From: an uncultured Bacilli bacterium | Lineage (GTDB): Bacteria; Bacillota_I; Bacilli_A; RF39; UBA660 | NCBI GenBank assembly: GCA_944358825.1 | Contig: CALVSA010000003.1 | Coordinates: 1-61,144, forward strand | DNA: 61,144 bases | Reading direction: 5' to 3' | In this document: positions 37,381 through 55,280 of the stretch, piece by piece | Position numbering within the stretch: position 1 is the first letter of the stretch | Layout of the letters: each line of letters begins with the position of its first letter | Program-made: the position numbers and the translations under genes | The notes under the pieces: model-generated | What the model was told of the DNA's origin: nothing | Database searches by the model: none | The model's input: only the letters and a program-made list of their open reading frames with translations

Positions 37381-38373
37381 ATGAAAAAGGTTGATTATAT
37401 ATTATTAATATTTGTGGTTTTAATTTCACTTTTTGGACTTTTGATGATTTATTCTTCTTCTTATGTATGGTCAGAGTATAAATTTAATGATCCATATAGG
37501 TTTTTAAAGTTGCAATCGATATTTTTAACAATTAGTTATATAGTAATGATTATAGTATCAAATATAGATTATAGGAAATATTTAAATAAAGCAAACATTA
37601 TTTTTGGTGTTTGTTTTATTTTATTGATTTTAGTTTTAATTCCAGGAATCGGAACTGTTAGAAATGGTTCTAGGAGTTGGTTTGGAATAGGTTCTTTTGG
37701 TATACAACCGAGTGAATTTACTAAACTGGCTATGATTATTTTTGTTTCTAAATATCTTACTAATAATGAGAGAATTTTAAAGAACATTAAAAGTGGAGTT
37801 TTGCCTATATTAGGAATATTAATGTTAATATTTTTATTAATTATGCTACAACCGGATTTTGGAACGGGCGTAGTAATAGTTATGACAATTGTTGTATTGC
37901 TTTTTGTAAGTGGAGTGAAAATGAACTTTTTTATAAAATTAGCATCTGTTGGCATTGTTGGAATAACTATATTAATTATGATGGCACCATATAGATTAAA
38001 AAGGATTTTATCGTTTTTAAATCCGTGGGAAGATCCACTAGGTAGTGGTTTTCAGATTATTCAGTCAATGTATGCGATTGGTCCAGGTGGCTTATTAGGT
38101 TTAGGATTAGGAAATTCTATTCAAAAACATTTTTATTTACCAGAACCACAGACAGATTTTATATTTTCTATTATAAGCGAAGAATTTGGTTTTATGGGTG
38201 TTTTGTTAGTAACAGTTTTATTTTTAACAATTATTTATCGCGGATTTAAAATTTCAATGAAATGTGAAGATAAATTTGGCAAATATTTAGCGTTTGGAAT
38301 AACATTTGGATTAGCTTTTCAAGCTTTACTTAATTTAATGGTTGTTGTTGGTTTGATTCCTGTTACTGGGTAA
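37381..38373 (+). CDS. spoVE: N-terminal 330 codons of a split SEDS protein (FtsW/SpoVE family)
   Basis: GSRSWFGIGSFGIQPSEFTKL, QPDFGT, and NPWEDPLGSGFQIIQS. The ORF ends ...GLIPVTG followed by a stop codon from the inserted DNA. The conserved C-terminal PFxSYGGSS is missing here. Confidence 0.9.
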   Translation: MKKVDYILLIFVVLISLFGLLMIYSSSYVWSEYKFNDPYRFLKLQSIFLTISYIVMIIVSNIDYRKYLNKANIIFGVCFILLILVLIPGIGTVRNGSRSWFGIGSFGIQPSEFTKLAMIIFVSKYLTNNERILKNIKSGVLPILGILMLIFLLIMLQPDFGTGVVIVMTIVVLLFVSGVKMNFFIKLASVGIVGITILIMMAPYRLKRILSFLNPWEDPLGSGFQIIQSMYAIGPGGLLGLGLGNSIQKHFYLPEPQTDFIFSIISEEFGFMGVLLVTVLFLTIIYRGFKISMKCEDKFGKYLAFGITFGLAFQALLNLMVVVGLIPVTG

Positions 38374-38409
38374 ACATTGCAAGGTAACTGATTACGACAA
38401 ACAAATTTT

Positions 38410-38428
38410 TCCCTTATTTTATAAGGGA
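38410..38428 (+). terminator. Hairpin just inside the left end of element 2 (possible read-through terminator)
   Basis: TCCCTTAT-ttt-ATAAGGGA 8-bp stem. The downstream T-tract is weak. Confidence 0.35.
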
Positions 38429-38661
38429 TTGGGAGTTTTTAATCTAATTTCCAAAGATAAAAAATATATAAAAAATGCTAAAATTTATAAAAAATCAAAA
38501 AAATTACAGATAAAAAATGAAGGTAACATTACCATTACTGCAAAGAAGTTGTTTTGGTAGTATAAAGAGTTTTGCATATAAGATTAAATAAAGATATTCA
38601 AATATATTGATTTATTTATTTTTTTTTGATAATATAAATAGCAGTAAATGAGGTGTTGTGT

Positions 38662-39885
38662 ATGTATGATGAGTTAGATGATTTTGTTCGTAAGGATTTG
38701 CCAATGCGATTTAACGAATTCGATTTGTTAAAGACGCAATTTTCAAGAATTATTAATTTATTTGAAGGTAAGATTTTGCCGCCATATGAAATTCTTATTC
38801 ATCCATCAAGTGTATGTAATTTGAATTGTGAATGGTGTATTGGAAGTTTTGTTGCTAATAAAAAGAGTTCAAATAAATTGTTAAAAAACAATTTGATGAA
38901 TTTAAATAATATGAAAAAAGTTGTAGACGGCATTATTTCTTATAGGAAGATGGGGATTAATTATTGGACAGGAAAAGAAGAAGAGTTTAAGGTTAATAAT
39001 GTTTCCTTTTCAGGTATAACAGGAGAGCCATTTATAGCAAAAGAATCTATTTTATATGCAATTAATAAATTATCAGAAAATGGAATAAGAGTGGGTGTCT
39101 TTACTAATGGTACTTTAATAGATAGAGATATGTATGATATAATATTAAAAATGGGGTATATATTAATTAGTCTTGATGCAGGTAACTCAATAACTTATTC
39201 TAAGTTAAAATGTTTAAATGATGACAAAAATATTTTTGAAAAAGTAATAAATACGATAAAAGAATTAAATATAAAGAAAAAAGAGTTAAATAGTTCTACA
39301 GATATAAATATAGGATATGTAATTAATCATTATAATTACAAAGAAATATATGATATTGCTCAAAAGTTAAAAAAAATAGGTGTTCATTATTTAAGATTCA
39401 AAACAGATATAGCCTCACTTATGAATATGACAGAAGAAGAAAGAACTTTCGCTAAATCTGAAATAACCCGTTCAAAAAAAGATTTAGAAGATGATAATTT
39501 TAAGATTGTAGAAATTCATAATGTATTAGATGATAGAAAAAAAACAAGAAGTTTTAAAAAGTGCTTTGTTCATTATTTGATTGGCAATATATCAGCGGAT
39601 GGAAATGTTTATCCATGCAATTATCATCCAAAACCGAATGGTTATTATTTTAACTCTGCAATAACTGAAGATTTTGGTCAAATTTGGGATGATATTCCTG
39701 AAAATATTATAGACAAAGATATTCCTAGTATATGTCCAGAAGTATGTGATCCTTTCAAAAATAGGGCTAATAAACTTTTAGAGATTACATATGAAATATA
39801 TCGAAACAAAGGAATTGAATATTTAAAAAAATGTATTGAACATACTTCATCTAAAATAAAAGAAACAGGGAACGTTAGAAAATAA
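38662..39885 (+). CDS. Radical SAM enzyme (about 407 aa) with a Cys-containing C-terminal region
   Basis: HPSSVCNLNCEWCIG (CxxxCxxC), FSGITGEPF, and later cysteines (KKCF, YPCNY, ICPEVCDPF). ATG 38662 follows the SD tgaggtg. Confidence 0.8.
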   Translation: MYDELDDFVRKDLPMRFNEFDLLKTQFSRIINLFEGKILPPYEILIHPSSVCNLNCEWCIGSFVANKKSSNKLLKNNLMNLNNMKKVVDGIISYRKMGINYWTGKEEEFKVNNVSFSGITGEPFIAKESILYAINKLSENGIRVGVFTNGTLIDRDMYDIILKMGYILISLDAGNSITYSKLKCLNDDKNIFEKVINTIKELNIKKKELNSSTDINIGYVINHYNYKEIYDIAQKLKKIGVHYLRFKTDIASLMNMTEEERTFAKSEITRSKKDLEDDNFKIVEIHNVLDDRKKTRSFKKCFVHYLIGNISADGNVYPCNYHPKPNGYYFNSAITEDFGQIWDDIPENIIDKDIPSICPEVCDPFKNRANKLLEITYEIYRNKGIEYLKKCIEHTSSKIKETGNVRK

Positions 39886-39897
39886 ATTATCTATTTT

Positions 39898-40878
39898 CTA
39901 ACGTTCCTTTAATATATCATCAATATAATTTTGAATTATGTAGGCATCTTTTAATGATGCTATATTGTGATTGTATTTTTTATCAAATATTAATTTATCT
40001 AATTCCTTGACTGCTTCTAGTCCCCATACTTTGGTTTTAGGAAAACTATACTTTTTTATGATTTTGTTATTTTTATTAAGAATATAAATAGTTGAATCTC
40101 TATTAATGGAAGTTTTAATATTTTTGTTATAGCATTTAATAAGAAGAATATCCTTATCAGACGTTGCATTTAAATCGAAATGCAATTTACAAGGAATATT
40201 TTGCATTTGGAATTCGGCGATAACATTACTTTCACAATTATGTTCTTTTTGCTCATATAAAACATTGCTTTTGATATTTTTAAATTCTCCAAAGATATAG
40301 TAGAGTACATCCAAAATGTGAGGTGAAATATCAAAAAAACGACCACCGCCAGAAATTTCTTTTTTATATATCCAACTATTTTGAATTAATTTTTGATCAT
40401 ATATACGCGAAAAATATCCTTCAATACTCAATATTTCACTGTATTTTTTTGACATTATTATTTTTTTAAGTTTTTTTATTTGAGGTGTTAATCTTTTATA
40501 ATGTGCAACAAAAACTTTAGTTGATTTCTTTTTATATAGATTAAGTATTGATTTCGCTTGTTTAGAGTTTAAAACAAAAGGTTTTTCAACATAGATTAGT
40601 TGTAGGTTATAATTTGCCAAAATTTTTAAATAGTCATAATGAAATTTTGGAGGAGTGCAAATATAAATTGCGTCAATAGACTCATTTTTTAGCATTCTAT
40701 ATACGTCATCATATTCATGACAATTTTTCAAATTGAGTTTGTGAATTGCGTTGATTGAATGTTCTAATTTAGTTGTACAAATAGCGGCAATTTCATTTTT
40801 ATTGTTGATAAAGGGAGATGTTTTATTTTTAAGTATTACCTTGCCACATCCAATTAATGCCCATTTTACTTTTTTCAT
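39898..40878 (-). CDS. Gfo/Idh/MocA-family NAD(P)-dependent oxidoreductase
   Basis: N-terminal Rossmann WALIGCGKV, AIYICTPPKFHYDY, and the YVEKPF motif. Confidence 0.8.
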   Translation of the reverse strand: MKKVKWALIGCGKVILKNKTSPFINNKNEIAAICTTKLEHSINAIHKLNLKNCHEYDDVYRMLKNESIDAIYICTPPKFHYDYLKILANYNLQLIYVEKPFVLNSKQAKSILNLYKKKSTKVFVAHYKRLTPQIKKLKKIIMSKKYSEILSIEGYFSRIYDQKLIQNSWIYKKEISGGGRFFDISPHILDVLYYIFGEFKNIKSNVLYEQKEHNCESNVIAEFQMQNIPCKLHFDLNATSDKDILLIKCYNKNIKTSINRDSTIYILNKNNKIIKKYSFPKTKVWGLEAVKELDKLIFDKKYNHNIASLKDAYIIQNYIDDILKER

Positions 40879-40983
40879 ATTTTCTCCTTTTGGATATTAT
40901 ATCATTTTTTTATAAAAATATAAATCTTTTTTGTTGAGATTATTTTATTAAAATAGTATAATTATATTGTAAAGGAGGACTTT

Positions 40984-41442
40984 ATGAGACAACCACATCA
41001 AATATTAGCTTTTCCATATAAGAAAGATAACGATGGAAATTATTTATATGGTATTTTTTGTAGAGCTGGAAAGACAGAAAGATGGCAAGGAATAGCTGGG
41101 GGAGTAGAAGAAGGAGAAAGCTTTTTAGAAGCATGCAAAAGGGAAGCAAATGAAGAGGCTGGTATAAGTTATGATGCATCAGTTGTTGAATTAAAATCTA
41201 TGTGTACAATGCCAGTTGTTAATGTAACTAAAGAATTTTTATGGGGAGAGAATGTTTATTTAATATATGAGCATTGTTTTGGTATTGATGCTACAAATGA
41301 GACCATAATATTATCACACGAGCATACAAAAATGGAATGGTTATTATTCGAGGATGCAAAGGCAAAACTTAAATGGGATAGTAATAAAAATGCCTTATGG
41401 GAGCTTAATTGGAAATTGATAAATAATAAACTTGATATATAA
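40984..41442 (+). CDS. Nudix hydrolase, NudB-like (copy A)
   Basis: Nudix box GGVEEGESFLEACKREANEEAG. The overall pattern (WQGIAGG..., KWDSNKNALWEL) resembles E. coli NudB as I recall it. Confidence 0.8.
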   Translation: MRQPHQILAFPYKKDNDGNYLYGIFCRAGKTERWQGIAGGVEEGESFLEACKREANEEAGISYDASVVELKSMCTMPVVNVTKEFLWGENVYLIYEHCFGIDATNETIILSHEHTKMEWLLFEDAKAKLKWDSNKNALWELNWKLINNKLDI

Positions 41443-41504
41443 TTTTTAATTGATTTTTCTTTATAAAAGCTTTATAATATACTGCGATAGCTGGTGGTGA
41501 GTAT

Positions 41505-42302
41505 ATGAAATATGATTTACATATTCATTCAACTATATCTGATGGAAAATTATCAAGAGAAGAAATAATAAAAATAGCGATTAAAAAAGAACTAGAGTTC
41601 ATTTCTTTTACCGAACATAATTCTTTTGAGTCTGTTTTATCACATGATGAAATTAATATAATTAATGGAATTGAATTTGATTCAATATTTAAAAGATCGT
41701 TCCATCTTTTATGTTATTTTCCTAATTATGATAGCGGTATTAGTTATCTTATAAATAAATATAGAGATAACACTAATGATTGTAGTAATATGTTGATAAA
41801 GAAAATAAACCAAGTTTTTAATATTTCTTTTTCGCTTGAAGAATTGATGCATTTTTTTAATAAACAATTTATAACAAAAAGGGATATAATAGATTGGCTT
41901 ATATTTAACAGATATGCAGAAAGTGTAAGCAAAGCTGCCGATATCTATACAAACAAAAAAGCACAGAGTTATGTTCCCAAATACTCTTTGCCTTTCCAAG
42001 AAGTGGCAAGTGTGATAAAAAATATTGGAGGTTATATGTTTCTTGCTCATCCTGTATCTTTAAATTATGATGATAGTGAACTTGAAGAATTTGTTTTACT
42101 TTTGAAAGAAAATGGCTTGGATGGTATAGAAATTGTTAATTCCTCAAAAATGTCTTTGATTGAAACAAAAAAATATAAAAAAATGGCACATAGATACGGG
42201 TTGTTAACGTGTGGTGGTAGTGATTTTCATGATTTCACCAAGCATGATATTGGTGTTGATGGAGATGAATCGGAAGTTTTAATTAGAAAGTTAAAGAAAT
42301 AA
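41505..42302 (+). CDS. PHP-domain phosphoesterase (TrpH/YciV-like), copy A
   Basis: YDLHIHSTISDG, FTEHNS, AHP and GGSDFH metal-ligand motifs. Confidence 0.8.
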   Translation: MKYDLHIHSTISDGKLSREEIIKIAIKKELEFISFTEHNSFESVLSHDEINIINGIEFDSIFKRSFHLLCYFPNYDSGISYLINKYRDNTNDCSNMLIKKINQVFNISFSLEELMHFFNKQFITKRDIIDWLIFNRYAESVSKAADIYTNKKAQSYVPKYSLPFQEVASVIKNIGGYMFLAHPVSLNYDDSELEEFVLLLKENGLDGIEIVNSSKMSLIETKKYKKMAHRYGLLTCGGSDFHDFTKHDIGVDGDESEVLIRKLKK

Positions 42303-42307
42303 ATCTT

Positions 42308-43255
42308 CTAATCTAGAGAATTTATTCTTATCTCGTTTAGTTGTTCTATCGAAAAAACTTTTTCGTTAAATAATAGACTATATTCATCAAATAAGGAATT
42401 TTCAAATATTAATTGATCATCTGTATTAATTGTAACTTTTAAACCATATTCATACATCTTTTTAATTGGGTGACTTTTTATATCTTCAACTCGACACAAT
42501 TTTAAGTTACTAATAGGGCATACGTTAAATTGGACATTTTTATTTTTGGCATATTTCATAATTTTTTCATCATTTATAATAGAAATACCATGTTGAACAA
42601 CATTTAAATGTAAAGTTTTGATTGCTTCATATACGTCATATGCAGTTCCAAATTCACCGACGTGTGCTTTTCTTTTTAAATTTCTTTTTTTGGCGTGTTT
42701 ATATATGTTTTTAAAAATATATATTGGTTTTGATAACTCATCGCCAAATATATCTATTCCATTAAAGATAGTACTATCTATTAATTCCATGATAATAGCA
42801 TCATGTTCTATTTTATAGGCATTTCTGCTAATTCCTAAATCATAGTGTATTTTAATTTTATCTTTATATTTTTCTTTTATTTTTATTAGGTCATGAATAT
42901 ATTTTTCTGATTGGTTATCATAAACTTCGTAAACCAATCTATAATCGACACTCATTTCTAGTATTGATATTCCATCATTAATTGCTGTTAATATTGTACA
43001 TTCAAATAATGTTAATTGACCTTGCTTTGTTGTAGAAATTTTTATAATATTATTTTTTATAAAATTTGTGAGAGAGGTTATGTCTTCATTTTGGGTGAAG
43101 TGTTCTAAATTAAATTGTGGAAACTTTAAGGAAAAAAAATTTCTGTTTGAACCTAAAAGAGCGTGATTATGTAAATCTCCTTTAGGTAAGTTATTAAAAA
43201 GTTCTTTATTGTTTTCTAATATAGAAGTTTTAAAAATATTAAAATCATTTTGCAT
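42308..43255 (-). CDS. Adenosine/AMP-deaminase-family amidohydrolase (short, 315 aa)
   Basis: GDLHNHA, AHVGEFG, VQHGI and TINTDDQLIF motifs. Confidence 0.7.
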   Translation of the reverse strand: MQNDFNIFKTSILENNKELFNNLPKGDLHNHALLGSNRNFFSLKFPQFNLEHFTQNEDITSLTNFIKNNIIKISTTKQGQLTLFECTILTAINDGISILEMSVDYRLVYEVYDNQSEKYIHDLIKIKEKYKDKIKIHYDLGISRNAYKIEHDAIIMELIDSTIFNGIDIFGDELSKPIYIFKNIYKHAKKRNLKRKAHVGEFGTAYDVYEAIKTLHLNVVQHGISIINDEKIMKYAKNKNVQFNVCPISNLKLCRVEDIKSHPIKKMYEYGLKVTINTDDQLIFENSLFDEYSLLFNEKVFSIEQLNEIRINSLD

Positions 43256-43382
43256 AATGAGTCCCTCTTTTATAAAGATTATAACATATTCTGTACATTA
43301 ATAAAACTACAAAATATAGCAAAGAGATTGCAAATTATAAAAAATAGTTGTAAAATAATAAAAAGTTAAGGGGGAATGTCAT

Positions 43383-44195
43383 GTGAATAGAATAAACCTT
43401 CATATTCATTCTGTTGCATCCGATGGTATTTTATCAGGAGTTGAGGTTGTCAAAAAAGCATCTTATGAGAAACTTAAATATATTTCCATAACTGACCATG
43501 ATTCTATTGGCGAAGTACAAAATGCCATTAATTATTCTAAATCAACAAATGTTATTGTAATCCCAGGAGTCGAACTGACGGCTGATTATCCAAATGGTAA
43601 ATGTCATATTTTAGGTTATGGCATTTCACTAGAAATAATTGAAAAGTTTTCCAAACGAATTAGGGAAAGTCGAATAAAAAAAGCAAGGAAGTTAATTGAA
43701 ATGTTAGTAAATAGTGGCTATGAAATAACCTATAATGAGGTGTTAGAAGTTTGTTTAAATGGAGTGATAGGCAGAAGAGATATAGCCAGAATATTATCAA
43801 AGCATGGATATTTTGATAACGAAGATGAAGCAATAAAATCATTGCTTTCTCGAGGTGGAAAATATTATATTGAAACCCCAAAAAATAAAATAGAAGATTG
43901 CATTTCAATAATAAAAGAGAGTGGAGGTATTTCGGTAATAGCACATCCATGGACGTTAAATTTGACGTTAGCAGAATTAAGGAAATTCCTTATTCTATAC
44001 AAGTTTGAAGGGATAGAAACATACAATCATAATATTTCGGAAAAATTATATGAGCAACTAAATAATCTTGCGGTTGAATTGAATCTTTATAAAACTTGCG
44101 GAACAGATTATCATGGTCAAAAAGGGTTAAATGAGTTTATTGTAAACAAAAATGTGGATTGCACTAGGATCCTGCGGAAGATATGTGGTGATTAA
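43383..44195 (+). CDS. PHP-domain phosphoesterase (TrpH/YciV-like), copy B
   Basis: INLHIHSVASDG, ITDHDS, IAHP and GTDYHG motifs. GTG start after the SD aaggggga. Confidence 0.8.
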   Translation: MNRINLHIHSVASDGILSGVEVVKKASYEKLKYISITDHDSIGEVQNAINYSKSTNVIVIPGVELTADYPNGKCHILGYGISLEIIEKFSKRIRESRIKKARKLIEMLVNSGYEITYNEVLEVCLNGVIGRRDIARILSKHGYFDNEDEAIKSLLSRGGKYYIETPKNKIEDCISIIKESGGISVIAHPWTLNLTLAELRKFLILYKFEGIETYNHNISEKLYEQLNNLAVELNLYKTCGTDYHGQKGLNEFIVNKNVDCTRILRKICGD

Positions 44196-44196
44196 A

Positions 44197-45075
44197 ATGA
44201 ATGAAACATTGGGACTAATTATAAAAAAACATGGTATTGCTGAACAGTTTGTTAACGCAAAACTAATGGACAAAGAAAATAGAATTTTTATGAGTGATAA
44301 TTATGTTATAAAAATTTATTATCCAAAGAAATTTCAATATTATTATAATGAATTAGAGGTATATCAAAAATTATTTGGAAAAGACTATTTGCCAAAATTA
44401 TACCAATATGGAGAAGAAGAATCATACAAATATATTATTATATCTAAATTATATGGGCGATCATTGTTTGATTGTTGGGATAGCTATTCATACAAAGATA
44501 GAATAAATTTTATAGAACAAATTTCAAGGGTTTTGAGAGATATTAATAATATTAAAAAAACACCTATAGATTTTAAGCCAATACTTGATGCAAAATTTCA
44601 AACTGCAATAAGTGGTGTAAATTTTTCTAAAGAATATAAAACTTTTTTGAAAGAAACATATAATTATTATGTAAATTACATACAGAAACAAGAATCTGGA
44701 AGCTTAATTCATGTAGATGTTCATTTTTATAACTTTTTTGTAAGTAACGGTAAAATATTTGCTTACGATTTTGAAAACACTATGATTGCTCCTCTTGATT
44801 ACCAATTGTTGCGTTGGTATAGGATGTGGAAATATCCTGAAACATTTTTTTATCCAAAAAACAGCTTAAATTCTATTCAAAAAAGAACTTATGAAATTAT
44901 AATGCCTTCAATGTTAAAATTTTATCCAGAATTATTTAGTTGTTCCAATTTTGAGGAACGAATGAAATTATATTTATTAGTGTATTTATTGGAAGAAGCA
45001 AAAAGATGTAATCTATCTGAGAAAAAGATAAGTGAATATATTTCTGAAAATAGAAGAGTAAGAATAAGAGGTTAA
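44197..45075 (+). CDS. APH-family phosphotransferase
   Basis: LIHVDVHFYNFFVSNGKIFAYDFE catalytic/Mg-binding motif. I prefer ATG 44197. Confidence 0.65.
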   Translation: MNETLGLIIKKHGIAEQFVNAKLMDKENRIFMSDNYVIKIYYPKKFQYYYNELEVYQKLFGKDYLPKLYQYGEEESYKYIIISKLYGRSLFDCWDSYSYKDRINFIEQISRVLRDINNIKKTPIDFKPILDAKFQTAISGVNFSKEYKTFLKETYNYYVNYIQKQESGSLIHVDVHFYNFFVSNGKIFAYDFENTMIAPLDYQLLRWYRMWKYPETFFYPKNSLNSIQKRTYEIIMPSMLKFYPELFSCSNFEERMKLYLLVYLLEEAKRCNLSEKKISEYISENRRVRIRG

Positions 45076-45077
45076 TT

Positions 45078-46055
45078 ATGGTTTATGAGTTGAATAATTT
45101 TTTTGTTAGTTTTTCCTTATTGTGGGATCAAGAAATAAACTTAACTCTTTTAAAAGAATATTTAGGAGAGTATGCAATAGTTGAAAGAGTTACTAATTTA
45201 TCAGGACAATATGACTTGGCTATTTGTTTCATAGATGAAAATAATAGTTTATTTGATACAAATATATACATGATTGATAAGCACAAAGCGAGATTTGTAA
45301 ATAATCAATTATTCATTGGAAGGAAAGAGGTAAATAGTGAAGAAATACTATTTACTAAACGATTATTGATAGATTTAATTAATAGATTTTTTGAACGTAA
45401 AGGAGGTGTTTTTTTACATTCTTCCTCGGTTGTCTCTGAAGGAAATACAGTTCTTTTTATAGGCGATAAGGGAACTGGAAAAACAACAAACATGTTATAT
45501 TTATTAAATAATTATAATTTAGCATATTCCTCTAATGAGAGAACAGGGTTAATATTGAGTAGTGATAAAATTGTCTCATATGGAAATCCTGCAAGGATAA
45601 ACGTTCGTGCGAACACATTAAAATTGAATAAATTGTTGAAAGATAAGTTATGGGATTGTATTGATAAAAGTAAATATCAACAGTTCATAACTACTAATTT
45701 ATCCAGGGATTGCAGCGAAAGATTAGTAATTAGTTTTAATGATTTAGCTAATAAATTAGGGGTTCAGATTGTTCCTAGTTCAAAGCTGAAAATAATATTT
45801 AATTTAATATATGAGCCCAATATTGTGTTTGATTTTGAAGAAGTTGAATACAAGGAAATGAAACATTTTATAGAAAGTTCTGTAATTGATGGCGTTTTTC
45901 CGCAAAGAGAAGTTTTAAACAAAATTTTTCCGATTCATGCGACAGATGTAAAAGATATTTTAGATAGTGATGAAATATGTTATTATAATATATATCAAGA
46001 TGGGACAAGAGATAATAGTTCAGAAGTCTATAAAATATTAAAAAGGAAAATGTAA
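45078..46055 (+). CDS. HPr-kinase-like P-loop protein (HprK-related kinase family)
   Basis: FLHSSSVVSEGNTVLFIGDKGTGKTT resembles the HprK catalytic-domain P-loop context. Confidence 0.5.
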   Translation: MVYELNNFFVSFSLLWDQEINLTLLKEYLGEYAIVERVTNLSGQYDLAICFIDENNSLFDTNIYMIDKHKARFVNNQLFIGRKEVNSEEILFTKRLLIDLINRFFERKGGVFLHSSSVVSEGNTVLFIGDKGTGKTTNMLYLLNNYNLAYSSNERTGLILSSDKIVSYGNPARINVRANTLKLNKLLKDKLWDCIDKSKYQQFITTNLSRDCSERLVISFNDLANKLGVQIVPSSKLKIIFNLIYEPNIVFDFEEVEYKEMKHFIESSVIDGVFPQREVLNKIFPIHATDVKDILDSDEICYYNIYQDGTRDNSSEVYKILKRKM

Positions 46056-46056
46056 T

Positions 46057-46989
46057 ATGGAACAAATTGATAATATAATGAAATCTTACAGTATAGATCT
46101 TACAAGTTATAAATCATTATCAAAGGGATATGCATCTAGGAAATGGATTATTGTTGATAAAAATAAGAATAGATACCTTCTTAAGGAAATAAAGAATCAA
46201 TCTATAAATAGATTGTGTAAAATATTGCAGGTTCAGTCTAAACTATATGATTTTTCTCCCAAAATAATTAAAACTAAAAATAATGAATTATATGTTAATT
46301 ATGAGTATAATAGTTACTATTTAAGTGAATTTATTGAAAGTGAAAGGTTGGATGTGATTTCTCATGTGCGGGATATTGGACTTTTTCTTGCTATGTTGCA
46401 TAAAAAAATGTTCGAGGTAAAAAATATTCATACTACTTTCTTAAAAGTGGAAAATAATTTAATTATATTAAATGAATATTTAAAATATCACAAATTACAT
46501 AATCATACTGAATATGTTGAAATAATTAAGTATAAGTTATCTATTTTGGGAAAATTAAAAATTACTGATATTAATTTTAATAATTTAACAAAACAGATTA
46601 TTCATGGTGATTTTTATGGTGATAATATTCTTTATACTAATTCCTCGTATAAAATTGTAGATTTTGATCAGTGTTGTGAGTTTTATAAAGAATATGAAGT
46701 ATTAAGGGGTATGTTTATGTTATTTAGTGATTCTTTATTGAGCAAAGAAGAATTATATCGAATGAAGGAATTTATTGATGGATATTATACTTTAGAAAAG
46801 ATAAAATCGCCAAAAGATGCATACAATTTGTATTTATATATTCAAGCAAATAGTTTATCTAGTATTAAACCTGATGATTATGGCAAGTATGAAAAAATGA
46901 GTTTTGCAAAAAAGAGATTTAGGATATTAAAATGTTTAGTAGAAAATAAAGAGAATGTAATGAAAATTTTAGAAGGAGATTATAGATGA
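46057..46989 (+). CDS. APH/homoserine-kinase-type-II-family phosphotransferase
   Basis: IIHGDFYGDNILY...KIVDFDQ motif. Confidence 0.7.
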   Translation: MEQIDNIMKSYSIDLTSYKSLSKGYASRKWIIVDKNKNRYLLKEIKNQSINRLCKILQVQSKLYDFSPKIIKTKNNELYVNYEYNSYYLSEFIESERLDVISHVRDIGLFLAMLHKKMFEVKNIHTTFLKVENNLIILNEYLKYHKLHNHTEYVEIIKYKLSILGKLKITDINFNNLTKQIIHGDFYGDNILYTNSSYKIVDFDQCCEFYKEYEVLRGMFMLFSDSLLSKEELYRMKEFIDGYYTLEKIKSPKDAYNLYLYIQANSLSSIKPDDYGKYEKMSFAKKRFRILKCLVENKENVMKILEGDYR

Positions 46990-47429
46990 GAAAGCCAATT
47001 CAAGTTTTAGTCTTGCCATATAGACATTACAAAAATGAGATTCAATTTGCTCTATTTAAAAGAGCTGATTTAAATGTGTGGCAAGGAATAGCTGGAGGAG
47101 TAGAAGAAGGAGAGAATATTTTTGAAGCATGCAAAAGGGAGGCAAATGAAGAAGCAGGCATTCCTTTTGATGCAAGCTTTATAAAATTGGATTCAAAATC
47201 AACTATACCAGTAAATTTTATTAATGGAGATTTTCTATGGGGAGAAAGAACGTTTAATGTTATTGAATATTGCTTTGGTGTTTGTGTTGATGATATTGAT
47301 ATAGTTTTGTCTGAAGAGCATAAAGAAGTATTTTGGACGGATTATGAGAAAGCATTTACTATGTTTAAATGGGACAGTAATAGAAATGCTTTATGGGAAT
47401 TAAACGAAAGAATCAAGCGCATGAAATAA
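46986..47429 (+). CDS. Nudix hydrolase, NudB-like (copy B)
   Basis: Nudix box GGVEEGENIFEACKREANEEAG and KWDSNRNALWEL. Overlaps the preceding kinase gene by 4 nt. Confidence 0.8.
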   Translation: MRKPIQVLVLPYRHYKNEIQFALFKRADLNVWQGIAGGVEEGENIFEACKREANEEAGIPFDASFIKLDSKSTIPVNFINGDFLWGERTFNVIEYCFGVCVDDIDIVLSEEHKEVFWTDYEKAFTMFKWDSNRNALWELNERIKRMK

Positions 47430-47557
47430 TTAGAAATGGCTAAAAGAGAAGTTTACTGAAAATTATTTTTTTAATACATTAGTGTACTAAGTTATATTAA
47501 TATTGAATAAAAAGTAAAAATATGGTAATATAATATCTGTTTTAAGGAGGCAGTAAT

Positions 47558-49756
47558 ATGAGTCAAGATATTTATAAAGAGGAAACTGAATATTTAGAAT
47601 ATGTAGAAAAATGTATTGCTAAAGAATTAGAAACAGCAATTGAGATGTTAGATAAACTTCGCAAGCAAAAAATAACATACGATGATGCAAAACGTGGTGA
47701 ACATTTCACAAAAGAAGCATTAATGGATTTATATGCATCCAGAATTAGAAGATTAAAACAAATAATAAATTCACCTTATTTTGGAAGAATGGATTTTACA
47801 CCAAAAGATACAAGAATATCTCAAAAATTATATGTGGGAAAAACAACTGTATCTAACCCGGATAATCAATTAGCGGTTATTGACTGGAGAAGTCCAATAT
47901 CTAGTATGTATTATGATAGTTTAGTTGGAAATGCTAAATACATTGCTCCAGAAGGTATAATTGAAGGATTTATTTCATTAAAACGGCAAATTATTATTGA
48001 AGATGCTATTATTAAATCTGTATTAGATACTGATTTAATAACGGATGATGAAATATTACAAAATTATTTAGATGTTCATGCAGATAATAAGATGAAAGAT
48101 ATTGTTGCATCAATTCAAAAAGAGCAGAATGACATTATCAGAAGACCTATAAACGAAAACGTAATAGTTCAGGGAGTTGCCGGTTCTGGAAAAACAAGTG
48201 TAGCTTTGCATAGGATTGCTTTTTTAATATATTTATTAAATAATAGTGGTAACAAAAAAATGGTTAATTCAGATCAATTTTTGATAATTGGACCCAATAA
48301 TTATTTTTTAGACTATATTTCAGGCGTTTTGCCTGATTTAGATGTTGAAATGGTAAATCAGACAACAATTCCAGCTTTACTTGCAGATTTAGTTAATGAA
48401 AAATTTACTGTGCAAGAATCTACCGAAGAACTCAAAGAATTTTATTCCAATGGTAGAATTAGTTATGAAAGTGCAATAAAAAATTCACCGCAATTTAAGG
48501 AAGCATTGGATAGATATATGCAAGATATTATTGAGTACTATAAAAATACTAATATTGTTTATTATGGTAAAGTGTTGTTTTCAAAGGAAGAAATCGCTGA
48601 GTTACTTAAAAACCTAACAGGTAGTTATAGAGCAAAAATCAATTTTATCCAAAAACGTTTAGTTAAAAAAATAAAAGATGATTATGACAAATATTATGAC
48701 TTGCTAACTGAAGACTTATATCGAGAAGCGCGTTCTTTGCCAAAGAATAGTGAAAGAAGAAGATTATTGTATGATGAAACCACATTACTTGGAAAAGAAG
48801 TGAAAACGGGGCTAACAAAAGTTATAAAAAAACATTTTGAACTCATAAACAAGAAATTATTATTATTGTATGCAGGTTTTATAAATAGTATTGATAGATA
48901 TATGAATATAGAGAATGTTGAAGAATTTAAAAAATTCACAACAAAAAGATTATCTAAGAAAATACTATCAAGGGATGATATCGCTCCAATTTTATATTTA
49001 AAATCACAGTTGGATGATGTAAAGGATTATAACGGTATTATTCATGTGATCGTGGATGAAGCTCAAGATTTGGGATTATTAGAATTTAAGATTTTAAAAA
49101 AATTAATACCAAATGCAACTTTTTCTATTTTTGGCGATTTAAATCAAGCTATCTTTTCTTATCGTTCGGTAAAAGATTGGAAATCTGTCAAAGACGTGGT
49201 TTTTGAAGGTAATGCTAATATTGTTATGATGGATCAATCATATAGAACAACTGATGAAATAATGAGTGAAGCAAATAAGATTTCAGAAATTTTAACTGGG
49301 ACTTATTCAAAGGATATAATTAGGCATGGAAAACCAGTTCAATATATTTCTTGCGATGGTGATTCAGAAGTGTTGTTTATTGCTGAAAAAGTAAAAGAAT
49401 ATCGAAAAAGCGGATACAAGTCAATTGCAATAATATGTAAAGCAGAAGAAGAAGCTATGAGTATAAATAAAAAACTATTGTATTATGGTATTGATGCGAG
49501 AAATATCACACCAAATGATAGAGAGTATCACGGTGGATTATGTACTATTACTTGCAGTTTAGCGAAAGGCTTAGAATTTGACGCTTCTATTTTAGCTAAT
49601 GTTGATTCTAATATGTACAATCCATCGCGTGATATTGATATGAAGTTATTGTACGTAGGTATGACAAGAGCATTACATGAAACCACCATTATTTCAACTG
49701 GAGAATTACCTTCAGTTTTAAAAAAAAGAGGGGAGTCTTTAGTTAGAAAAAAATGA
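47558..49756 (+). CDS. helD: HelD-like UvrD-family (helicase IV-type) ATPase
   Basis: N-terminal coiled-coil region, LAVIDWRSPISSMYYD, Walker A GVAGSGKTSVALHR, VDEAQD, SYRTT and YVGMTRALH. Confidence 0.8.
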   Translation: MSQDIYKEETEYLEYVEKCIAKELETAIEMLDKLRKQKITYDDAKRGEHFTKEALMDLYASRIRRLKQIINSPYFGRMDFTPKDTRISQKLYVGKTTVSNPDNQLAVIDWRSPISSMYYDSLVGNAKYIAPEGIIEGFISLKRQIIIEDAIIKSVLDTDLITDDEILQNYLDVHADNKMKDIVASIQKEQNDIIRRPINENVIVQGVAGSGKTSVALHRIAFLIYLLNNSGNKKMVNSDQFLIIGPNNYFLDYISGVLPDLDVEMVNQTTIPALLADLVNEKFTVQESTEELKEFYSNGRISYESAIKNSPQFKEALDRYMQDIIEYYKNTNIVYYGKVLFSKEEIAELLKNLTGSYRAKINFIQKRLVKKIKDDYDKYYDLLTEDLYREARSLPKNSERRRLLYDETTLLGKEVKTGLTKVIKKHFELINKKLLLLYAGFINSIDRYMNIENVEEFKKFTTKRLSKKILSRDDIAPILYLKSQLDDVKDYNGIIHVIVDEAQDLGLLEFKILKKLIPNATFSIFGDLNQAIFSYRSVKDWKSVKDVVFEGNANIVMMDQSYRTTDEIMSEANKISEILTGTYSKDIIRHGKPVQYISCDGDSEVLFIAEKVKEYRKSGYKSIAIICKAEEEAMSINKKLLYYGIDARNITPNDREYHGGLCTITCSLAKGLEFDASILANVDSNMYNPSRDIDMKLLYVGMTRALHETTIISTGELPSVLKKRGESLVRKK

Positions 49757-51003
49757 AACTTTTAGAAAAAATTAATTGTGAATTGCCTACAATAGCAATT
49801 TTGGGAACAGGTTATGTAGGCTTGCCACTTATAAATCTTTTGTCGCAGAAGGTTCCCGTAATCGCTTATGACATAGATGAGGAGAGAATTACAGAATTAT
49901 TAAAAAATAATAAAAATAACAATATTACATTTACGTATGATGAATCCTTGCTTAGGAAGGCAGATGTAATAATAGTTTGTGTTTCTACACCAATTGATGA
50001 GAATAATCAGCCAAACTTAAATTATATAAAGAATGCTTGTATTTCTATTGCTAAAAATATTAAAGATGGAGTGCTAATTATTTTTGAGACATCATACATG
50101 CCGACATGTACGGAAAATATATGTATACCCTTGATTGAAAAAAAATCTGGATTAAAAAATGATATTAATTTTTACGTTGGCTATTCTCCTGAGAGAATAA
50201 ATCCTGGTGATATTCAAAACACATTGTCTAACATTACCAAGTTAATCGCTTCTCCATCAAAAAAGGTTTTAAATGCTATGAAGTATATTTACTCAGATAT
50301 AGCCGGTATAAACGTTTACGAAGTGAATGATATTAAAATTGCAGAACTATCTAAATTGGTAGAGAATTGTCAAAGAGACTTAAATATTGCCTTTGTAAAT
50401 GAGTTATCTATACTTTGTCATAGATTAAACATTGATGTTCAAGAAGTTATTAATTCAGCAGGGACAAAATGGAATTTTACAAAATATTATCCAGGTCTAG
50501 TCGGTGGTGGATGTGTCGGGGTAAATTCATATTATTTGATGAATCTTGCAGAACAATATGGAGTCAGATTGAATAGTTTAGAGATTGCGAGAAAAATTAA
50601 TTTATCAATGACAACGTTTATCGTTGCAGAAATTAGTAGATTAATTGGAAATGCGAATAGAAATAAAATCAAAGTAGTAATTTATGGTTATTCTTATAAA
50701 GAAAATATTCCTGATACACGAAATACAAGGGTAGAAGATTTATATAGAAATTTAATCAATGAAGAATATAGTGTTTGTATTTGTGATTATAATGTTTCAT
50801 CTTGTCAGTATGTGAGTAAAGAAGATATAAGTGATGCTGATATTATTATTTTAGCTGTTGCTCATAGAAATTACATTAATTGGAATAATGAAGAGATTAG
50901 TAAAAAATTTAATCAGAAATCAAAGTATAAAATTTTTATGGATGTAAAGTCTGTTTATAAAGATAAGGTTATGCCTAAAACAATTACATATTGGCATTTG
51001 TAA
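49753..51003 (+). CDS. Nucleotide-sugar dehydrogenase (UDP-glucose/UDP-ManNAc/TviB family)
   Basis: IAILGTGYVGLP Rossmann motif, YSPERINPGD, and the catalytic-Cys region PGLVGGGCVGV. The ATG overlaps the helD stop by 4 nt. Confidence 0.8.
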   Translation: MKLLEKINCELPTIAILGTGYVGLPLINLLSQKVPVIAYDIDEERITELLKNNKNNNITFTYDESLLRKADVIIVCVSTPIDENNQPNLNYIKNACISIAKNIKDGVLIIFETSYMPTCTENICIPLIEKKSGLKNDINFYVGYSPERINPGDIQNTLSNITKLIASPSKKVLNAMKYIYSDIAGINVYEVNDIKIAELSKLVENCQRDLNIAFVNELSILCHRLNIDVQEVINSAGTKWNFTKYYPGLVGGGCVGVNSYYLMNLAEQYGVRLNSLEIARKINLSMTTFIVAEISRLIGNANRNKIKVVIYGYSYKENIPDTRNTRVEDLYRNLINEEYSVCICDYNVSSCQYVSKEDISDADIIILAVAHRNYINWNNEEISKKFNQKSKYKIFMDVKSVYKDKVMPKTITYWHL

Positions 51004-51009
51004 TAAAGT

Positions 51010-51032
51010 AAAGATGAGAAATACTCATCTTT
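51010..51032 (+). terminator. Intrinsic terminator ending the helD-dehydrogenase operon
   Basis: AAAGATGAG-aaata-CTCATCTTT stem, followed by TT(a)T. Confidence 0.6.
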
Positions 51033-51116
51033 TTATATGTAATAAAAAAGTAAGATTAATAATGTTATTCATTATTTTCTTTTAATTAGAATACTTTTTA
51101 TAGAGGTGGCTAATCT

Positions 51117-51251
51117 ATGAAAAGAATTGATAAAAACGGTAAAAGAAGGAAACTAAATATGGAATTTATTTATAAAAAAGATGGTACAAAATTAGAAGAA
51201 ATTATGAAGGAGGGATATTTGTGTTATTTAAGAAATTTAAAAGCCAAATGA
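51117..51251 (+). CDS. Small basic hypothetical protein (44 aa) upstream of recombinase 2
   Basis: SD agaggtgg 7 nt upstream. Sequence MKRIDKNGKRRKLNMEFIYKKDGTKLEEIMKEGYLCYLRNLKAK*. Not in the ORF track. Confidence 0.3.
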   Translation: MKRIDKNGKRRKLNMEFIYKKDGTKLEEIMKEGYLCYLRNLKAK

Positions 51252-51333
51252 TTTGCTTTTTTGAAGTTTTGATGGTAACATGGCATTGTGAGGTCTTGGT
51301 ATTGCAAAATAATAGATTGGAGGGAATAAATTA

Positions 51334-52908
51334 ATGCAATACCTATGTGCTGGTTATAATAGATTATCAGATGCTGATAATAAAAACGATGAAAGTTCTT
51401 CTATTCAAAGTCAAAAAATGATAATTGATTCTTTTGCTAAATTTAATAATTTTCAAATTGTTAAACATTATGTAGATGATGGATATTCTGGAGGTAATTT
51501 TGATAGACCTGGGTTTAAAGAAATGATCGAGGATATTGAAAAAGGAAAAATTAATTGTGTCATTACAAAGGACTTATCTAGACTTGGTCGTGAAATGTAT
51601 AAAACTGGTAACTATATTGAAGAATACTTTAGAGAACACGGTGTTAGGTATATTGCTATTAATGATTCCTATGATTCTACTGTTGGTGATTCAATGTTAG
51701 GAATTAGATTAAGTGTTAATGATTTATATTTAAGAGATGTATCTAAAAAAGTTAAAACGTCTCTTAAAGCAAAACAAACTAAAGGCGATTATATTGGCTC
51801 TTTTCCTAGATATGGATATAAAAAAGATCCAAATGATAAACATAAATTAATTGTTGATGAAGAAGTCAGATATGTTGTTGAACTCATTTATGATTTAGCA
51901 CTTGAGGGAAAAAGCCCTAGAAAAATAGCAGAAATATTAACCTTAAAAAAGATTCCTATTCCAATAGTTTATAAGGGTGAGCCTAGAGGTAAAAATATTA
52001 CAGAAAATGATGGCTTTGGAATTTGGAAAAGGCAAACTGTTAAAGATATACTAACAAGTGAAATGTATATTGGAAATATGGTACAAAATACCTTTAATAA
52101 AGTCAGTTATAATTCTAAAAAATTAAGAAAGACTGATACTAGTGAATACATTGTCGTACCAAATACTCATGAGGCAATTATATCGAAAGAAACATTTGAT
52201 AAAGTTCAAGATTTACTAAATTCTAGGACAAAAGACAAAAAAACTGATAGTCAATTAGAATATTTACTTGGAGGACTTCTTTATTGTAAAGAGTGTGGAA
52301 GAAGTATTAGAATTAGTAAAGATGTTTTAAAAACTACTGTAAGACACTATACACAATGTAATCTATATACGAGAAAAGGCAAATTTGGTGTTTGTTCATC
52401 TCATAGGATTAATTATGATTGGTTAGAAGAAGATATTATAGAATATTTACAAAATATATGCGAAGAATTTTGCAAGTATTATGACTTTAACGAACTAGAA
52501 GATAATTCAGAAGAAATAGTGATTAAAAATTTAAGGGAAATTAATAAGAAAATTGAAAAGATTGATAATGAAATAAATTCTCATAAGAATATGCTCGATA
52601 GTTTATATATGGATAAAGTTAGTGGACTTGTTGATGAAGATATGTATAAAAGAATTTATGATAAAACTAAAACAGAAATAAAGAAATTAGAAATTGAATT
52701 AGAGGAATTAATGAGAAAAAAAGATAATAATAAGAGTGTTCAAAATACTTCTTCATTTAATCGGTGCAAAAAATCTGTTTTAGATTATATGTCGCTTAAA
52801 AATCCTACTAAAAATCAAATTATGAGACTTATTGATCGAATAGAAATTGATAAAGATAAGAAAATTTATGTTCATTTGAAATTTCCAGAATTAATTATTA
52901 ATGATTAA
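51334..52908 (+). CDS. Large serine recombinase
   Basis: YNRLSDAD...SSSIQSQ catalytic region, ITKDLSRLGRE, zinc ribbon CKECGR...C...C, and a C-terminal coiled coil (EIELEELMRKK). SD ttggaggg. Confidence 0.9.
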   Translation: MQYLCAGYNRLSDADNKNDESSSIQSQKMIIDSFAKFNNFQIVKHYVDDGYSGGNFDRPGFKEMIEDIEKGKINCVITKDLSRLGREMYKTGNYIEEYFREHGVRYIAINDSYDSTVGDSMLGIRLSVNDLYLRDVSKKVKTSLKAKQTKGDYIGSFPRYGYKKDPNDKHKLIVDEEVRYVVELIYDLALEGKSPRKIAEILTLKKIPIPIVYKGEPRGKNITENDGFGIWKRQTVKDILTSEMYIGNMVQNTFNKVSYNSKKLRKTDTSEYIVVPNTHEAIISKETFDKVQDLLNSRTKDKKTDSQLEYLLGGLLYCKECGRSIRISKDVLKTTVRHYTQCNLYTRKGKFGVCSSHRINYDWLEEDIIEYLQNICEEFCKYYDFNELEDNSEEIVIKNLREINKKIEKIDNEINSHKNMLDSLYMDKVSGLVDEDMYKRIYDKTKTEIKKLEIELEELMRKKDNNKSVQNTSSFNRCKKSVLDYMSLKNPTKNQIMRLIDRIEIDKDKKIYVHLKFPELIIND

Positions 52909-53000
52909 AAAACAGTTATAAAGCAATGTTATATTTATTTTTCAGTAATATAGATAGTGTAACCTATACAAAATAAGTTGCACAAGAAAGATTTAGGGGG

Positions 53001-53096
53001 GTAACTTTGCCTTTCTTAAGTTATGGAGGTAGTAGTTTAATTATTACTATGATTGGTATAGGTATTTTACTAAATATTTCAAGGTCAGAAAAATAA
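53001..53096 (+). CDS. spoVE: C-terminal 31 codons of the split SEDS protein (FtsW/SpoVE)
   Basis: Reads [31 protein letters not shown], the conserved SEDS C-terminal motif. It has no start codon of its own. Not in the ORF track. Confidence 0.85.

Positions 53097-53109: not shown

Positions 53110-55280
<2,171 letters not shown>

Follow-up and report, generated by a model that had tools for sequence, protein, structure and literature searches.

Why does a block of twelve enzyme genes travel inside an element that splits a sporulation gene, and what would these enzymes make together? The question is raised by a 61,144-nucleotide stretch of contig CALVSA010000003.1 from an uncultured Bacilli bacterium (the window, meaning this whole stretch throughout), in which the block forms the cargo of a mobile element, Element 2, inserted in spoVE. 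The original prediction had read this cargo as a gene set for producing, or for immunity to, a modified nucleoside or nucleotide. We conclude with high confidence that the twelve genes are a real, co-evolving functional unit. Tentatively, and at somewhat less than even probability, we favour the reading that they encode an orphan, horizontally mobile small-molecule pathway built around a radical S-adenosylmethionine (SAM) enzyme that resembles DesII and BlsE and acts on a nucleotide-linked sugar. The original prediction survives in part: its gene set, their co-conservation and the HelD protein stand, while the kinase route to a triphosphate and the proposed link to mraY fall.

All twelve cargo open reading frames (ORFs) were confirmed at positions 38662-51003, and the family labels first given to them are correct at the superfamily level by Pfam, NCBIfam and structure. 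Nearly all cargo proteins score far under the NCBIfam equivalog cut-offs, the exceptions being HelD and the match of the dehydrogenase to a generic nucleotide-sugar dehydrogenase subfamily. They are therefore not ordinary housekeeping orthologues, and NCBIfam homology does not place the cassette in ordinary salvage or folate metabolism. Single-sequence PDB searches with the radical SAM, P-loop and second APH-fold (APH2) proteins gave marginal matches only, so that profiles or models were required; a 20-sequence alignment served for structure prediction. The P-loop protein is rare, with 23 clusters in a 5.8-billion-protein index, 19 representatives at E<=1e-30 among 1.84 billion, and five loci in 185,579 species genomes, all of them metagenome-assembled. 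Its homologues at 61%, 48% and 41% identity lie in cassettes with the same gene order and strands, and independent loci repeat the cassette genes in the same order at 41-78% protein identity. Co-conservation had been set in advance as the test on which the gene set would stand or fall, and it stands. These three homologous cassettes are found in ordinary chromosomal contexts, not in recombinase elements, and the cassette is therefore an autonomous unit that was captured by the spoVE element. At loci L009 and L012, a syntenic chromosomal site is kept across about 50% divergence and downstream AMP-binding and histidine-kinase genes are common to both, which argues for vertical inheritance there. 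Full-text literature searches for this gene combination turned up no description of it.

The company that the cassette keeps was examined in 80 further metagenome loci, all ORFs of which were scored with hidden Markov models (HMMs) built from the cargo. Among 53 non-redundant loci, Nudix was present in 35, the P-loop protein in 26, the APH2-type kinase in 24 and the dehydrogenase in 13, many contigs among the remaining loci being shorter than 3 kb. Three contexts emerge. The first, an aminotransferase type seen in 18 non-redundant loci, combines the radical SAM enzyme with Nudix, APH, P-loop and DegT proteins, with the dehydrogenase and an Amidohydro_1 protein as optional members. The second pairs the radical SAM enzyme with short-chain dehydrogenases/reductases (SDRs) like GalE, RmlD or GDP-mannose dehydratase, with or without Nudix. 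The third is the window type, found on gut and rumen Clostridia-like contigs. There, a Gfo/Idh/MocA protein replaces DegT (in L017 a GalE-like SDR replaces Gfo), a second APH, a second Nudix and PHP enzymes are added, and both an adenosine-deaminase-family enzyme (ADA) and HelD occur in six of seven loci. The replacement is strict, with DegT in 0/7 Gfo/SDR-type cassettes and Gfo in 0/18 DegT-type cassettes. L018 and L034 are intermediates, carrying two APH, two Nudix, PHP and DegT without ADA or HelD. Across phyla, the dehydrogenase, radical SAM, Nudix, DegT and APH genes are grouped together in the loci read from Listeria monocytogenes, Pectobacterium versatile, Burkholderia plantarii and Bacillus toyonensis plasmids; the radical SAM gene is directly beside Nudix in three of these four, and a P-loop homologue was detected by tblastn in the first three.

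The radical SAM enzyme is the best-conserved cassette member, at 59-78% identity in homologous cassettes. Its cluster motif is CNLNCEWC, and four C-terminal cysteines, invariant among 42 radical SAM sequences, suggest an auxiliary cluster. When the AF2 model (pLDDT 93) was searched with Foldseek, DesII was the top match (E 9e-14, TMq 0.59-0.65), followed by SkfB, SuiB, CteB, BlsE, anSME, viperin and MoaA. Viperin, to whose products the original prediction had likened the putative molecule, ranked under DesII, SkfB, SuiB, BlsE and anSME, and its likeness proved generic: membership of the prokaryotic viperins (pVip) is rejected at 53.4 bits against the NF038283 cut-off of 180, the PADLOC pVip model giving 53.6 bits. 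Homologues at 40-46% identity occur in Listeria monocytogenes, Pectobacterium versatile, Burkholderia plantarii, Xenorhabdus, Elusimicrobia and Patescibacteria, and on Bacillus toyonensis megaplasmids. Viral contigs hold no close homologue (relatives that span most of the query reach 31% identity at best, and there is one short fragment), and with only such distant relatives there we reject a phage-borne cassette.

The partners of this enzyme speak of sugars. PseC, ArnB, LegC and DesI come nearest to the cassette aminotransferases, the dehydrogenase is TviB-like, the substitute in L017 is GalE-like, and the SDR neighbours of more distant radical SAM homologues are RmlD- or GDP-mannose-dehydratase-like. 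In the window, the dehydrogenase has all three UDPG/MGDP Pfam domains and the GGGC catalytic Cys and passes TIGR03026 (294 bits, cut-off 190), while remaining under the substrate-level equivalogs (TviB, 243 bits vs 592). The Gfo/Idh/MocA protein, whose gene fills the slot taken by the DegT aminotransferase in other lineages, has as its best PDB match the C-glycoside 3-oxidoreductase DgpA (E 4e-17). Sugar-nucleotide partners across phyla together with a DesII/BlsE-like fold therefore make a nucleotide-linked hexose a likelier substrate than a base or a free nucleoside.

Three consecutive kinases had been proposed to take a nucleoside to its triphosphate. Two have the APH fold and the third a PEP carboxykinase (PEPCK)/HprK fold, and no member of the nucleoside kinase (dNK), nucleoside monophosphate (NMP) kinase or nucleoside diphosphate kinase (NDK) families was found among the cassette proteins with Pfam and NCBIfam. 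The three-kinase argument therefore fails: these phosphotransferases have small-molecule or protein-type folds and are not nucleotide kinases. By its profile, APH2 comes nearest to amicoumacin kinase, type II homoserine kinase, YtaA/CotS, N-acetylhexosamine kinase (NahK) and spectinomycin phosphotransferase; APH-fold phosphotransferase 1 is restricted to Clostridia variants of the cassette. The P-loop protein has no significant Pfam match beyond a weak PF27840 ScmC tag, and its AF2 model (pLDDT 92) matches PEP carboxykinase (E 1e-8) and HPr kinase/phosphorylase in Foldseek. Nudix 1 and 2 reach 60 and 57 bits with the NudB equivalog NF006961, under its cut-off of 103; kinship at family level is clear, the Nudix family profile matching PDB 3SON at E 3e-54 and the E. 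coli NudB/dATP pyrophosphohydrolase 2O1C at E 3e-17. For PHP proteins 1 and 2, which have an HxHSxxSDG motif, the best models are RNase RNM/TrpH and 3',5'-nucleoside bisphosphate phosphatase, with 88 and 145 bits to NF041577 (cut-off 400) and 93 and 133 bits to NF047791 (cut-off 375).

ADA and HelD form a pair apart. The deaminase falls under both adenosine deaminase equivalogs (TIGR01430, 131.5 bits vs 216.6; NF006856, 249 bits vs 510). It aligns over its full length with Plasmodium adenosine deaminases (best PDB match E 2.6e-21) and keeps the HNH, HVGE, HG and TDD motifs that align to their catalytic residues. The large ATPase is, by its sequence, a genuine full-length class I HelD, as had been predicted: it passes NF041464 (HelD_BACSU; 421 bits, cut-off 419) and matches B. 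subtilis 6WVK_H in phmmer at E 1.4e-83, query residues 56-717 against 85-758, with the part ahead of the helicase core included. HelR-type relatives of HelD protect RNA polymerase from rifamycins. HelR models give 150-154 bits with the cassette protein, against cut-offs of 750-1100. By its linkage to the pathway, HelD would be a plausible candidate self-protection factor. ADA and HelD occur jointly in the window, L009, L012, L014, L031 and L017, whereas L018, L034 and L032 have neither, and the two come together again in an unrelated radical SAM cassette, L120. This joint gain is consistent with a layer of protection or sanitation around a nucleotide-like product. The ADA subfamily also occurs in other radical SAM/HelD cassettes, and one metagenomic protein (P0249, 456 aa) naturally fuses a member of this subfamily (48% identity) to a domain from another Nudix family.

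From these comparisons a stepwise mechanism can be proposed, with moderate to low confidence. Firstly, the TviB-like dehydrogenase would oxidise C6 of a UDP-HexNAc-type sugar nucleotide, from which the radical SAM enzyme would then remove a ring hydrogen to give a keto, deoxy or decarboxylated sugar nucleotide. In most lineages, the PseC/ArnB-like aminotransferase would next aminate the ketone; in the window lineage, the Gfo/Idh/MocA enzyme (or the GalE-like SDR of L017) would reduce or epimerise it instead. The NudB-like Nudix enzymes would subsequently split the pyrophosphate and free a nucleoside monophosphate. The APH-fold and PEPCK/HprK-fold phosphotransferases and the PHP phosphatases might put phosphate on the freed product or take it off, either for activation or to keep a phosphorylated, inactive storage form as in amicoumacin and streptomycin self-resistance. 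Lastly, in the gut-Clostridia variant that gained ADA and HelD jointly, ADA could remove 5'-deoxyadenosine or deaminate an adenine-containing intermediate, and HelD could keep transcription going where RNA polymerase is stalled by a nucleotide-like product or by-product.

Several points weigh against this reading. Each enzymatic step is assigned from family or fold, and the fold match of the radical SAM enzyme is only moderate (TM ~0.6), peptide-modifying SPASM enzymes scoring almost equally. Nudix enzymes of the NudB-like type hydrolyse purine nucleoside triphosphate (NTP)-like substrates, so an NTP would fit at least equally, and a uridine-sugar model leaves the deaminase only the 5'-deoxyadenosine by-product as an obvious substrate. 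HelD may be ordinary housekeeping, linked by chance. The window cassette contains no glycosyltransferase, transporter or regulator, which bears on the fate of a product, and some relatives of the ADA and of the toolkit adjoin restriction-modification, GmrSD and toxin-antitoxin genes.

The layout of the cassette and its carrier is given in Table 1. A promoter scan was uninformative in DNA of 26% GC, with 110 sites seen against 113.6 expected; the window as a whole is about 25% GC.

Table 1 Layout of Element 2, its cargo and the split spoVE gene in the window.
Feature	Position	Strand	Basis or remark
spoVE 5' part, 330 codons, ends GLIPVTG then element-borne TAA	37381-38370	+	Pfam FTSW_RODA_SPOVE, profile 4-324 of 356
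attL and Element 2 left end (GGGTAAACATTGCAAGGTAACTGATTACGA...)	38368-38430	+	GGGTAA common with attR
Radical SAM enzyme	38662 (or GTG 38653)-39885	+	Radical_SAM E 4.5e-11, weak SPASM match
Terminator-like hairpin, 18-bp stem, between convergent radical SAM and Gfo genes	39869-39907		
Gfo/Idh/MocA NAD(P) sugar oxidoreductase	39898-40878	-	family profiles
NudB-like Nudix pyrophosphohydrolase 1	40984-41442	+	NudB best NCBIfam model, Nudix box intact
PHP-family phosphoesterase 1, TrpH/YciV-like	41505-42302	+	HIHSxxSDG motif
Adenosine-deaminase-family enzyme	42308-43255	-	A_deaminase E 8.8e-35
PHP-family phosphoesterase 2	43383-44195	+	closest 3',5'-nucleoside bisphosphate phosphatase, 145 bits, under cut-off
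APH-fold phosphotransferase 1	44152-45075	+	HxDxxxxN and DFE motifs
PEPCK/HprK-fold P-loop protein, ScmC-like	45078-46055	+	Walker A GDKGTGKTT
APH-fold phosphotransferase 2	46057-46989	+	core partner of radical SAM enzyme across phyla
NudB-like Nudix pyrophosphohydrolase 2	46986-47429	+	~50% identical to Nudix 1
HelD, RNA-polymerase recycling motor, class I Bacillus type	47558-49756	+	UvrD/HelD profiles
Nucleotide-sugar 6-dehydrogenase, TviB/UDP-ManNAc dehydrogenase branch	49753-51003	+	catalytic Cys in GGGC
Terminator-like hairpin at cargo end	51010-51032		
44-aa basic ORF upstream of recombinase	51117-51251	+	called in L001, L002, L005, L008
Element 2 large serine recombinase	51334-52908	+	Resolvase, Recombinase, Zn_ribbon_recom; CcrB/CcrC- and XisF-like
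attR (GGGGGGTAAC) and spoVE 3' part	52996-53096	+	sequence comparison

Could the substrate be a purine nucleotide after all? In this alternative, the ribose would be modified in the manner of puromycin and 3'-amino-3'-deoxyguanosine (ADG): the radical SAM enzyme and/or Gfo would turn ATP or dATP into a keto or deoxy form, Nudix would strip pyrophosphate from the toxic triphosphate, PHP would dephosphorylate it, the deaminase would tailor or detoxify an adenine analogue, and HelD would free RNA polymerase stalled by the chain-terminating product. We hold this to be unlikely, and yet it is the main rival and the most defensible form of the original idea of a modified nucleoside. It is kept as such because of the joint ADA and HelD gain, the L120 cassette, the ADA-Nudix fusion and the Pur/Adg precedent. 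That precedent is validated, Pur10, Pur4, Pur7 and Pur3 corresponding to AdgB-E (PMC9239236, PMC11641026). With Pur10, the Pur4 aminotransferase, the Pur7 Nudix enzyme and the Pur3 phosphatase give 3'-aminonucleosides, and AdgB-E expressed in E. coli give 3'-amino-3'-deoxyguanosine (PMC9239236, PMC11641026), which is made into the triphosphate in the target cell and terminates RNA chains (PMC9239236). The closeness of the cassette Nudix to NudB/dATP pyrophosphohydrolase, the retained catalytic residues of ADA, the NTP-acting viperin and MoaA among the radical SAM structural matches, and the Ham1/ITPase, purine nucleoside phosphorylase (PNP), pyrophosphatase, His_Phos and CYTH neighbours in related loci also speak for it. 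It leaves a bona fide nucleotide-sugar 6-dehydrogenase without a task, however, since ribose has no C6; the GalE-/RmlD-like partners and PseC/ArnB-like aminotransferases indicate NDP-hexoses, the window has no aminotransferase, and the cassette no nucleoside or nucleotide kinase. Of the original proposal, then, the joint gain and the precedent favour a modified nucleoside or nucleotide, while partners and fold point to a nucleotide-linked hexose.

A role in anti-phage or anti-plasmid defence ranks next and is likewise unlikely. Here, a modified nucleotide would be made, or adenine nucleotides depleted or deaminated upon infection, much as viperin, RADAR or Cad1 act, with Nudix and PHP sanitising the pool and the HelD/UvrD-type motor as effector or sensor. 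The patchy and rare distribution noted above for the P-loop marker would suit such a role, as would carriage on a mobile element whose site elsewhere holds other cargo, including an Apyc1-like metallo-beta-lactamase (MBL), and a hypervariable chromosomal locus with alternative radical SAM/ADA/HelD cassettes. As to defence islands, a check that had been suggested at the outset, the related toolkit cassette L121 adjoins restriction-modification and GmrSD genes, and toxin-antitoxin, integrase and reverse-transcriptase genes surround a solitary ADA homologue. On the other side of the balance, defence HMM matches in the flanks of 14 aminotransferase-type loci are only scattered, in 1-3 of 60 ORFs each. 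PADLOC gave weak matches to pVip, CARF-ADA and GajB, but all are generic and no known system architecture fits. Twelve biosynthetic-type enzymes with sugar aminotransferase, dehydrogenase and epimerase partners would be atypical for defence, close radical SAM homologues are missing from viral contigs, and L009 and L012 keep the cassette in place on the chromosome through their long divergence.

Three loci that touch on these readings deserve description in their own right. L114 (5690-30790 of the 285-kb Bacillus toyonensis plasmid NZ_CP087104.1, from a cultured strain) carries the aminotransferase-type core near genes for an adenylate-forming enzyme, a decarboxylase, a carrier protein, an acyl-CoA dehydrogenase, a HAD hydrolase and a nucleotidyltransferase and near citrate-synthase-like and PEP-mutase-family genes; this strain is tractable for finding the product. 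L120 (1-18954), a rumen contig, shares the downstream AMP-binding gene of L009 and L012 and holds a different cassette at the syntenic locus. This cassette comprises an acetyltransferase-ASCH-Nudix fusion, a separate Nudix, ABC-F, HelD, three radical SAM genes and the same ADA subfamily, together with an HprK-like P-loop protein, two further Nudix, a pyrophosphatase, PNP, Ham1/ITPase, Metallophos and His_Phos. The L121 cassette (2253-18948) comprises PHP, a radical SAM/SPASM enzyme, GT2, a ScmC/HprK-like protein, a shikimate-dehydrogenase-like protein, an Apyc1-like MBL, ADA, a small P-loop kinase and APH, and directly adjoins the restriction-modification system and GmrSD. Its archaeal-type AdoMet synthetase is 34.5% identical to the counterpart in Element 1, a second element of the window described below.

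A more specific extension appears less probable again and is doubtful: that the cassette makes a nucleotide-mimicking RNA-polymerase toxin (a phosphorylated sugar-acid or deoxy/amino-sugar nucleoside) with layered self-protection, spread by intervening elements with swappable cargo. In concept it would be like thuringiensin or the 3'-aminonucleoside triphosphates. HelD would provide target protection, ADA, Nudix and PHP sanitation, and the APH-type kinases would hold a phospho-inactivated form. The elements would spread toxin or defence cassettes among gut Clostridia. Through the elements the spore, as the germ line, would retain the cassettes, whereas the mother cell would lose them if excision takes place there as it does for related elements.

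It is improbable that the cassette supplies an unusual sugar for a cell-envelope or spore-surface glycan, in an ordinary precursor role. The TviB-like dehydrogenase, Gfo (WbpB-type), DegT and GalE-like proteins do belong to families typical of surface-polysaccharide precursors, APH2 weakly matches CotS-family spore-coat kinases, and the host is a spore former with the element among its sporulation genes. Against these stand the absence of a glycosyltransferase, flippase or polymerase from the cassette, the lack of one that recurs consistently in its flanks, and the fact that Nudix cleavage would destroy the activated donor. The kinases, PHP, ADA and HelD have no place in glycan precursor synthesis, and excision in the mother cell, if it occurs as for skin/gin-type elements, would deprive of the cargo precisely the cell by which the spore surface is made. 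Scarcely credible, finally, is maturation of a ribosomally synthesised and post-translationally modified peptide (RiPP), in which the SPASM-type radical SAM enzyme and the ScmC/HprK-like kinase would modify a small precursor: a weak SPASM match, peptide maturases among the best NCBIfam matches, SkfB, SuiB and CteB among the top structural matches and the weak ScmC tag hint at it, but we reject it since the AT-rich spacer next to the radical SAM gene offers no precursor peptide (its small ORFs, of 24-43 aa, are all unconserved), no peptidase, RiPP recognition element or exporter is present, and the invariant partners are nucleotide and sugar enzymes.

How did the cassette come to lie where it does? 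The window neighbourhood consists of Clostridium-type sporulation and cell-wall genes: spoVD, mraY, spoVE, SpoIIIAH, a Germane-domain protein, a collagen-repeat protein and RNase J. The spoVE reading frame breaks off at the left end of Element 2, and codons 331-361 (31 codons, ending SRSEK and a stop) resume at 53001-53096, just past the recombinase. In strains with MraY in the same 90% cluster (L115, L116 and L119), an intact 361-aa spoVE with the predicted junction is found, with the same GT2-TPR gene directly downstream. The uninterrupted gene in relatives indicates that Element 2, ~38371-53000, is therefore a gene-intervening element of the skin/gin type: a sporulation gene is split, a serine recombinase lies at one end, and relatives have an intact allele with the precise junction. 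By analogy with characterised skin/gin-type elements, Element 2 would be excised in the sporulating mother cell. The 44-aa ORF, conserved in several samples immediately ahead of the recombinase gene, has no family match and is a candidate recombination directionality factor.

The insertion site is not private to this cargo. In a related strain, L118 (1826-7153), another element whose left end is homologous interrupts spoVE at the codon used by Element 2. Its cargo is different, namely LysR, a HAD hydrolase, a thymidylate-kinase-like protein and an Apyc1-like metallo-beta-lactamase, which makes the site a hot spot where cargo can be swapped. Element 1 (~21816-35640, within 20568-36291), the second serine-recombinase element of the window, splits spoVD between SFGQGVSVTAIQQ and ITAVSAAINGG. 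Its cargo is another sugar-type toolkit: an AbiEi-like protein, a xylose-isomerase-like TIM barrel, an archaeal-type AdoMet synthetase, a PIG-L deacetylase, GT1, a RIO-like protein, Peptidase_S51, an APH-like protein and a radical SAM/SPASM enzyme that scores 147 bits with the Element 2 radical SAM HMM. The original prediction had remarked that both islands flank mraY, the classical target of uridyl nucleoside antibiotics. They do so because mraY lies between two sporulation genes that tolerate interruption, and the link is a by-product of insertions into spoVD and spoVE. Beyond Element 2, a collagen triple-helix repeat ORF (54198-55343, - strand) lies in a 1-kb stretch of 52% GC in a genome of 25% GC; it is BclA-like, probably an exosporium filament protein, and varies from 325 to 422 aa in L002, L115 and L117.

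If the cassette is a pathway of its own, its core (radical SAM enzyme, NudB-like Nudix, APH-fold kinase and HprK-fold protein, with or without aminotransferase and dehydrogenase) would be an unstudied natural-product route, sparsely spread over Firmicutes, Proteobacteria and candidate phyla, and its radical SAM chemistry on a nucleotide-linked sugar would be without a characterised representative. The joint gain of ADA and a dedicated HelD yields the testable idea that HelD-type rescue serves self-protection beyond the rifamycin/HelR case. For the carrier, the locus means that sporulation-gene-intervening elements can target spoVE and spoVD and swap whole enzyme pathways as cargo.

Among known systems, the cassette radical SAM enzyme is nearest in structure to DesII (rank 1), which remodels a nucleotide-linked hexose, a TDP-sugar, in desosamine synthesis; BlsE of the blasticidin S pathway (rank 14) acts on cytosylglucuronate. 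In both pathways, a DegT-type aminotransferase acts after the radical SAM step. In blasticidin synthesis, UDP-glucuronic acid (UDP-GlcA) precedes BlsE and BlsH follows it, and in most lineages the cassette enzyme adjoins a nucleotide-sugar 6-dehydrogenase and a PseC/ArnB-like aminotransferase, mirroring that route. Sequence identity to DesII and BlsE is just 12-14%, however, and the four invariant C-terminal cysteines set the cassette enzyme apart. It is paired with a NudB-like Nudix and two phosphotransferases, which the DesII and BlsE pathways lack, whereas the aminotransferase of those pathways is missing from the window variant. With pVip, the cassette shares a radical SAM enzyme that would act on a nucleotide, and viperin is among the structural matches; pVip is often kinase-linked and its products terminate RNA chains. 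The cassette enzyme differs from pVip in being longer, with extra conserved Cys, sugar-type partners and no nucleotide kinase.

The puromycin/A201A/ADG module is similar at the level of enzyme classes (an oxidoreductase, a Nudix NTP pyrophosphohydrolase, a phosphatase and, in sister cassettes, an aminotransferase), and in the puromycin cluster Pur7 is counted as one of the enzymes that mediate resistance (PMC11641026, PMC9239236). A radical SAM enzyme, a nucleotide-sugar dehydrogenase, kinases, ADA and HelD are all missing from the module, and its phosphatase is a monophosphatase where those of the cassette are PHP enzymes. With PHP in that place and no DegT-family (Pur4-type) ORF anywhere in the window, the cassette is not a module of this type. 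Thuringiensin of Bacillus thuringiensis is a conceptual parallel only. Its molecule links an adenine nucleoside with a sugar and a phosphorylated sugar acid and is a competitor of ATP at RNA polymerase; its synthesis depends on a UDP-glucose-dehydrogenase-type enzyme and a kinase (PMC4147579). Membership of the thu cluster (thuA-G, thu1-4) is rejected, as that cluster is without radical SAM, Nudix, PHP, ADA or HelD; the Bacillus toyonensis plasmid locus, suggestive at first, is not the thu cluster either.

The carrier resembles skin and gin in the recombinase at one end and in a sporulation gene that is split here and intact in relatives, and the gin element of B. cereus carries non-phage cargo, like Element 2 (PMC5595907). 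Elements 2 and 1 differ in their targets, spoVE and spoVD, which are not mentioned as targets in the literature searched, and Element 2 further differs in carrying a complete enzyme pathway and in having alternative cargo at the same site in L118. The cassette is best filed as a variant of the radical-SAM-dependent pathways that tailor sugar nucleotides or nucleosides, borne on a variant sporulation-gene-intervening element.

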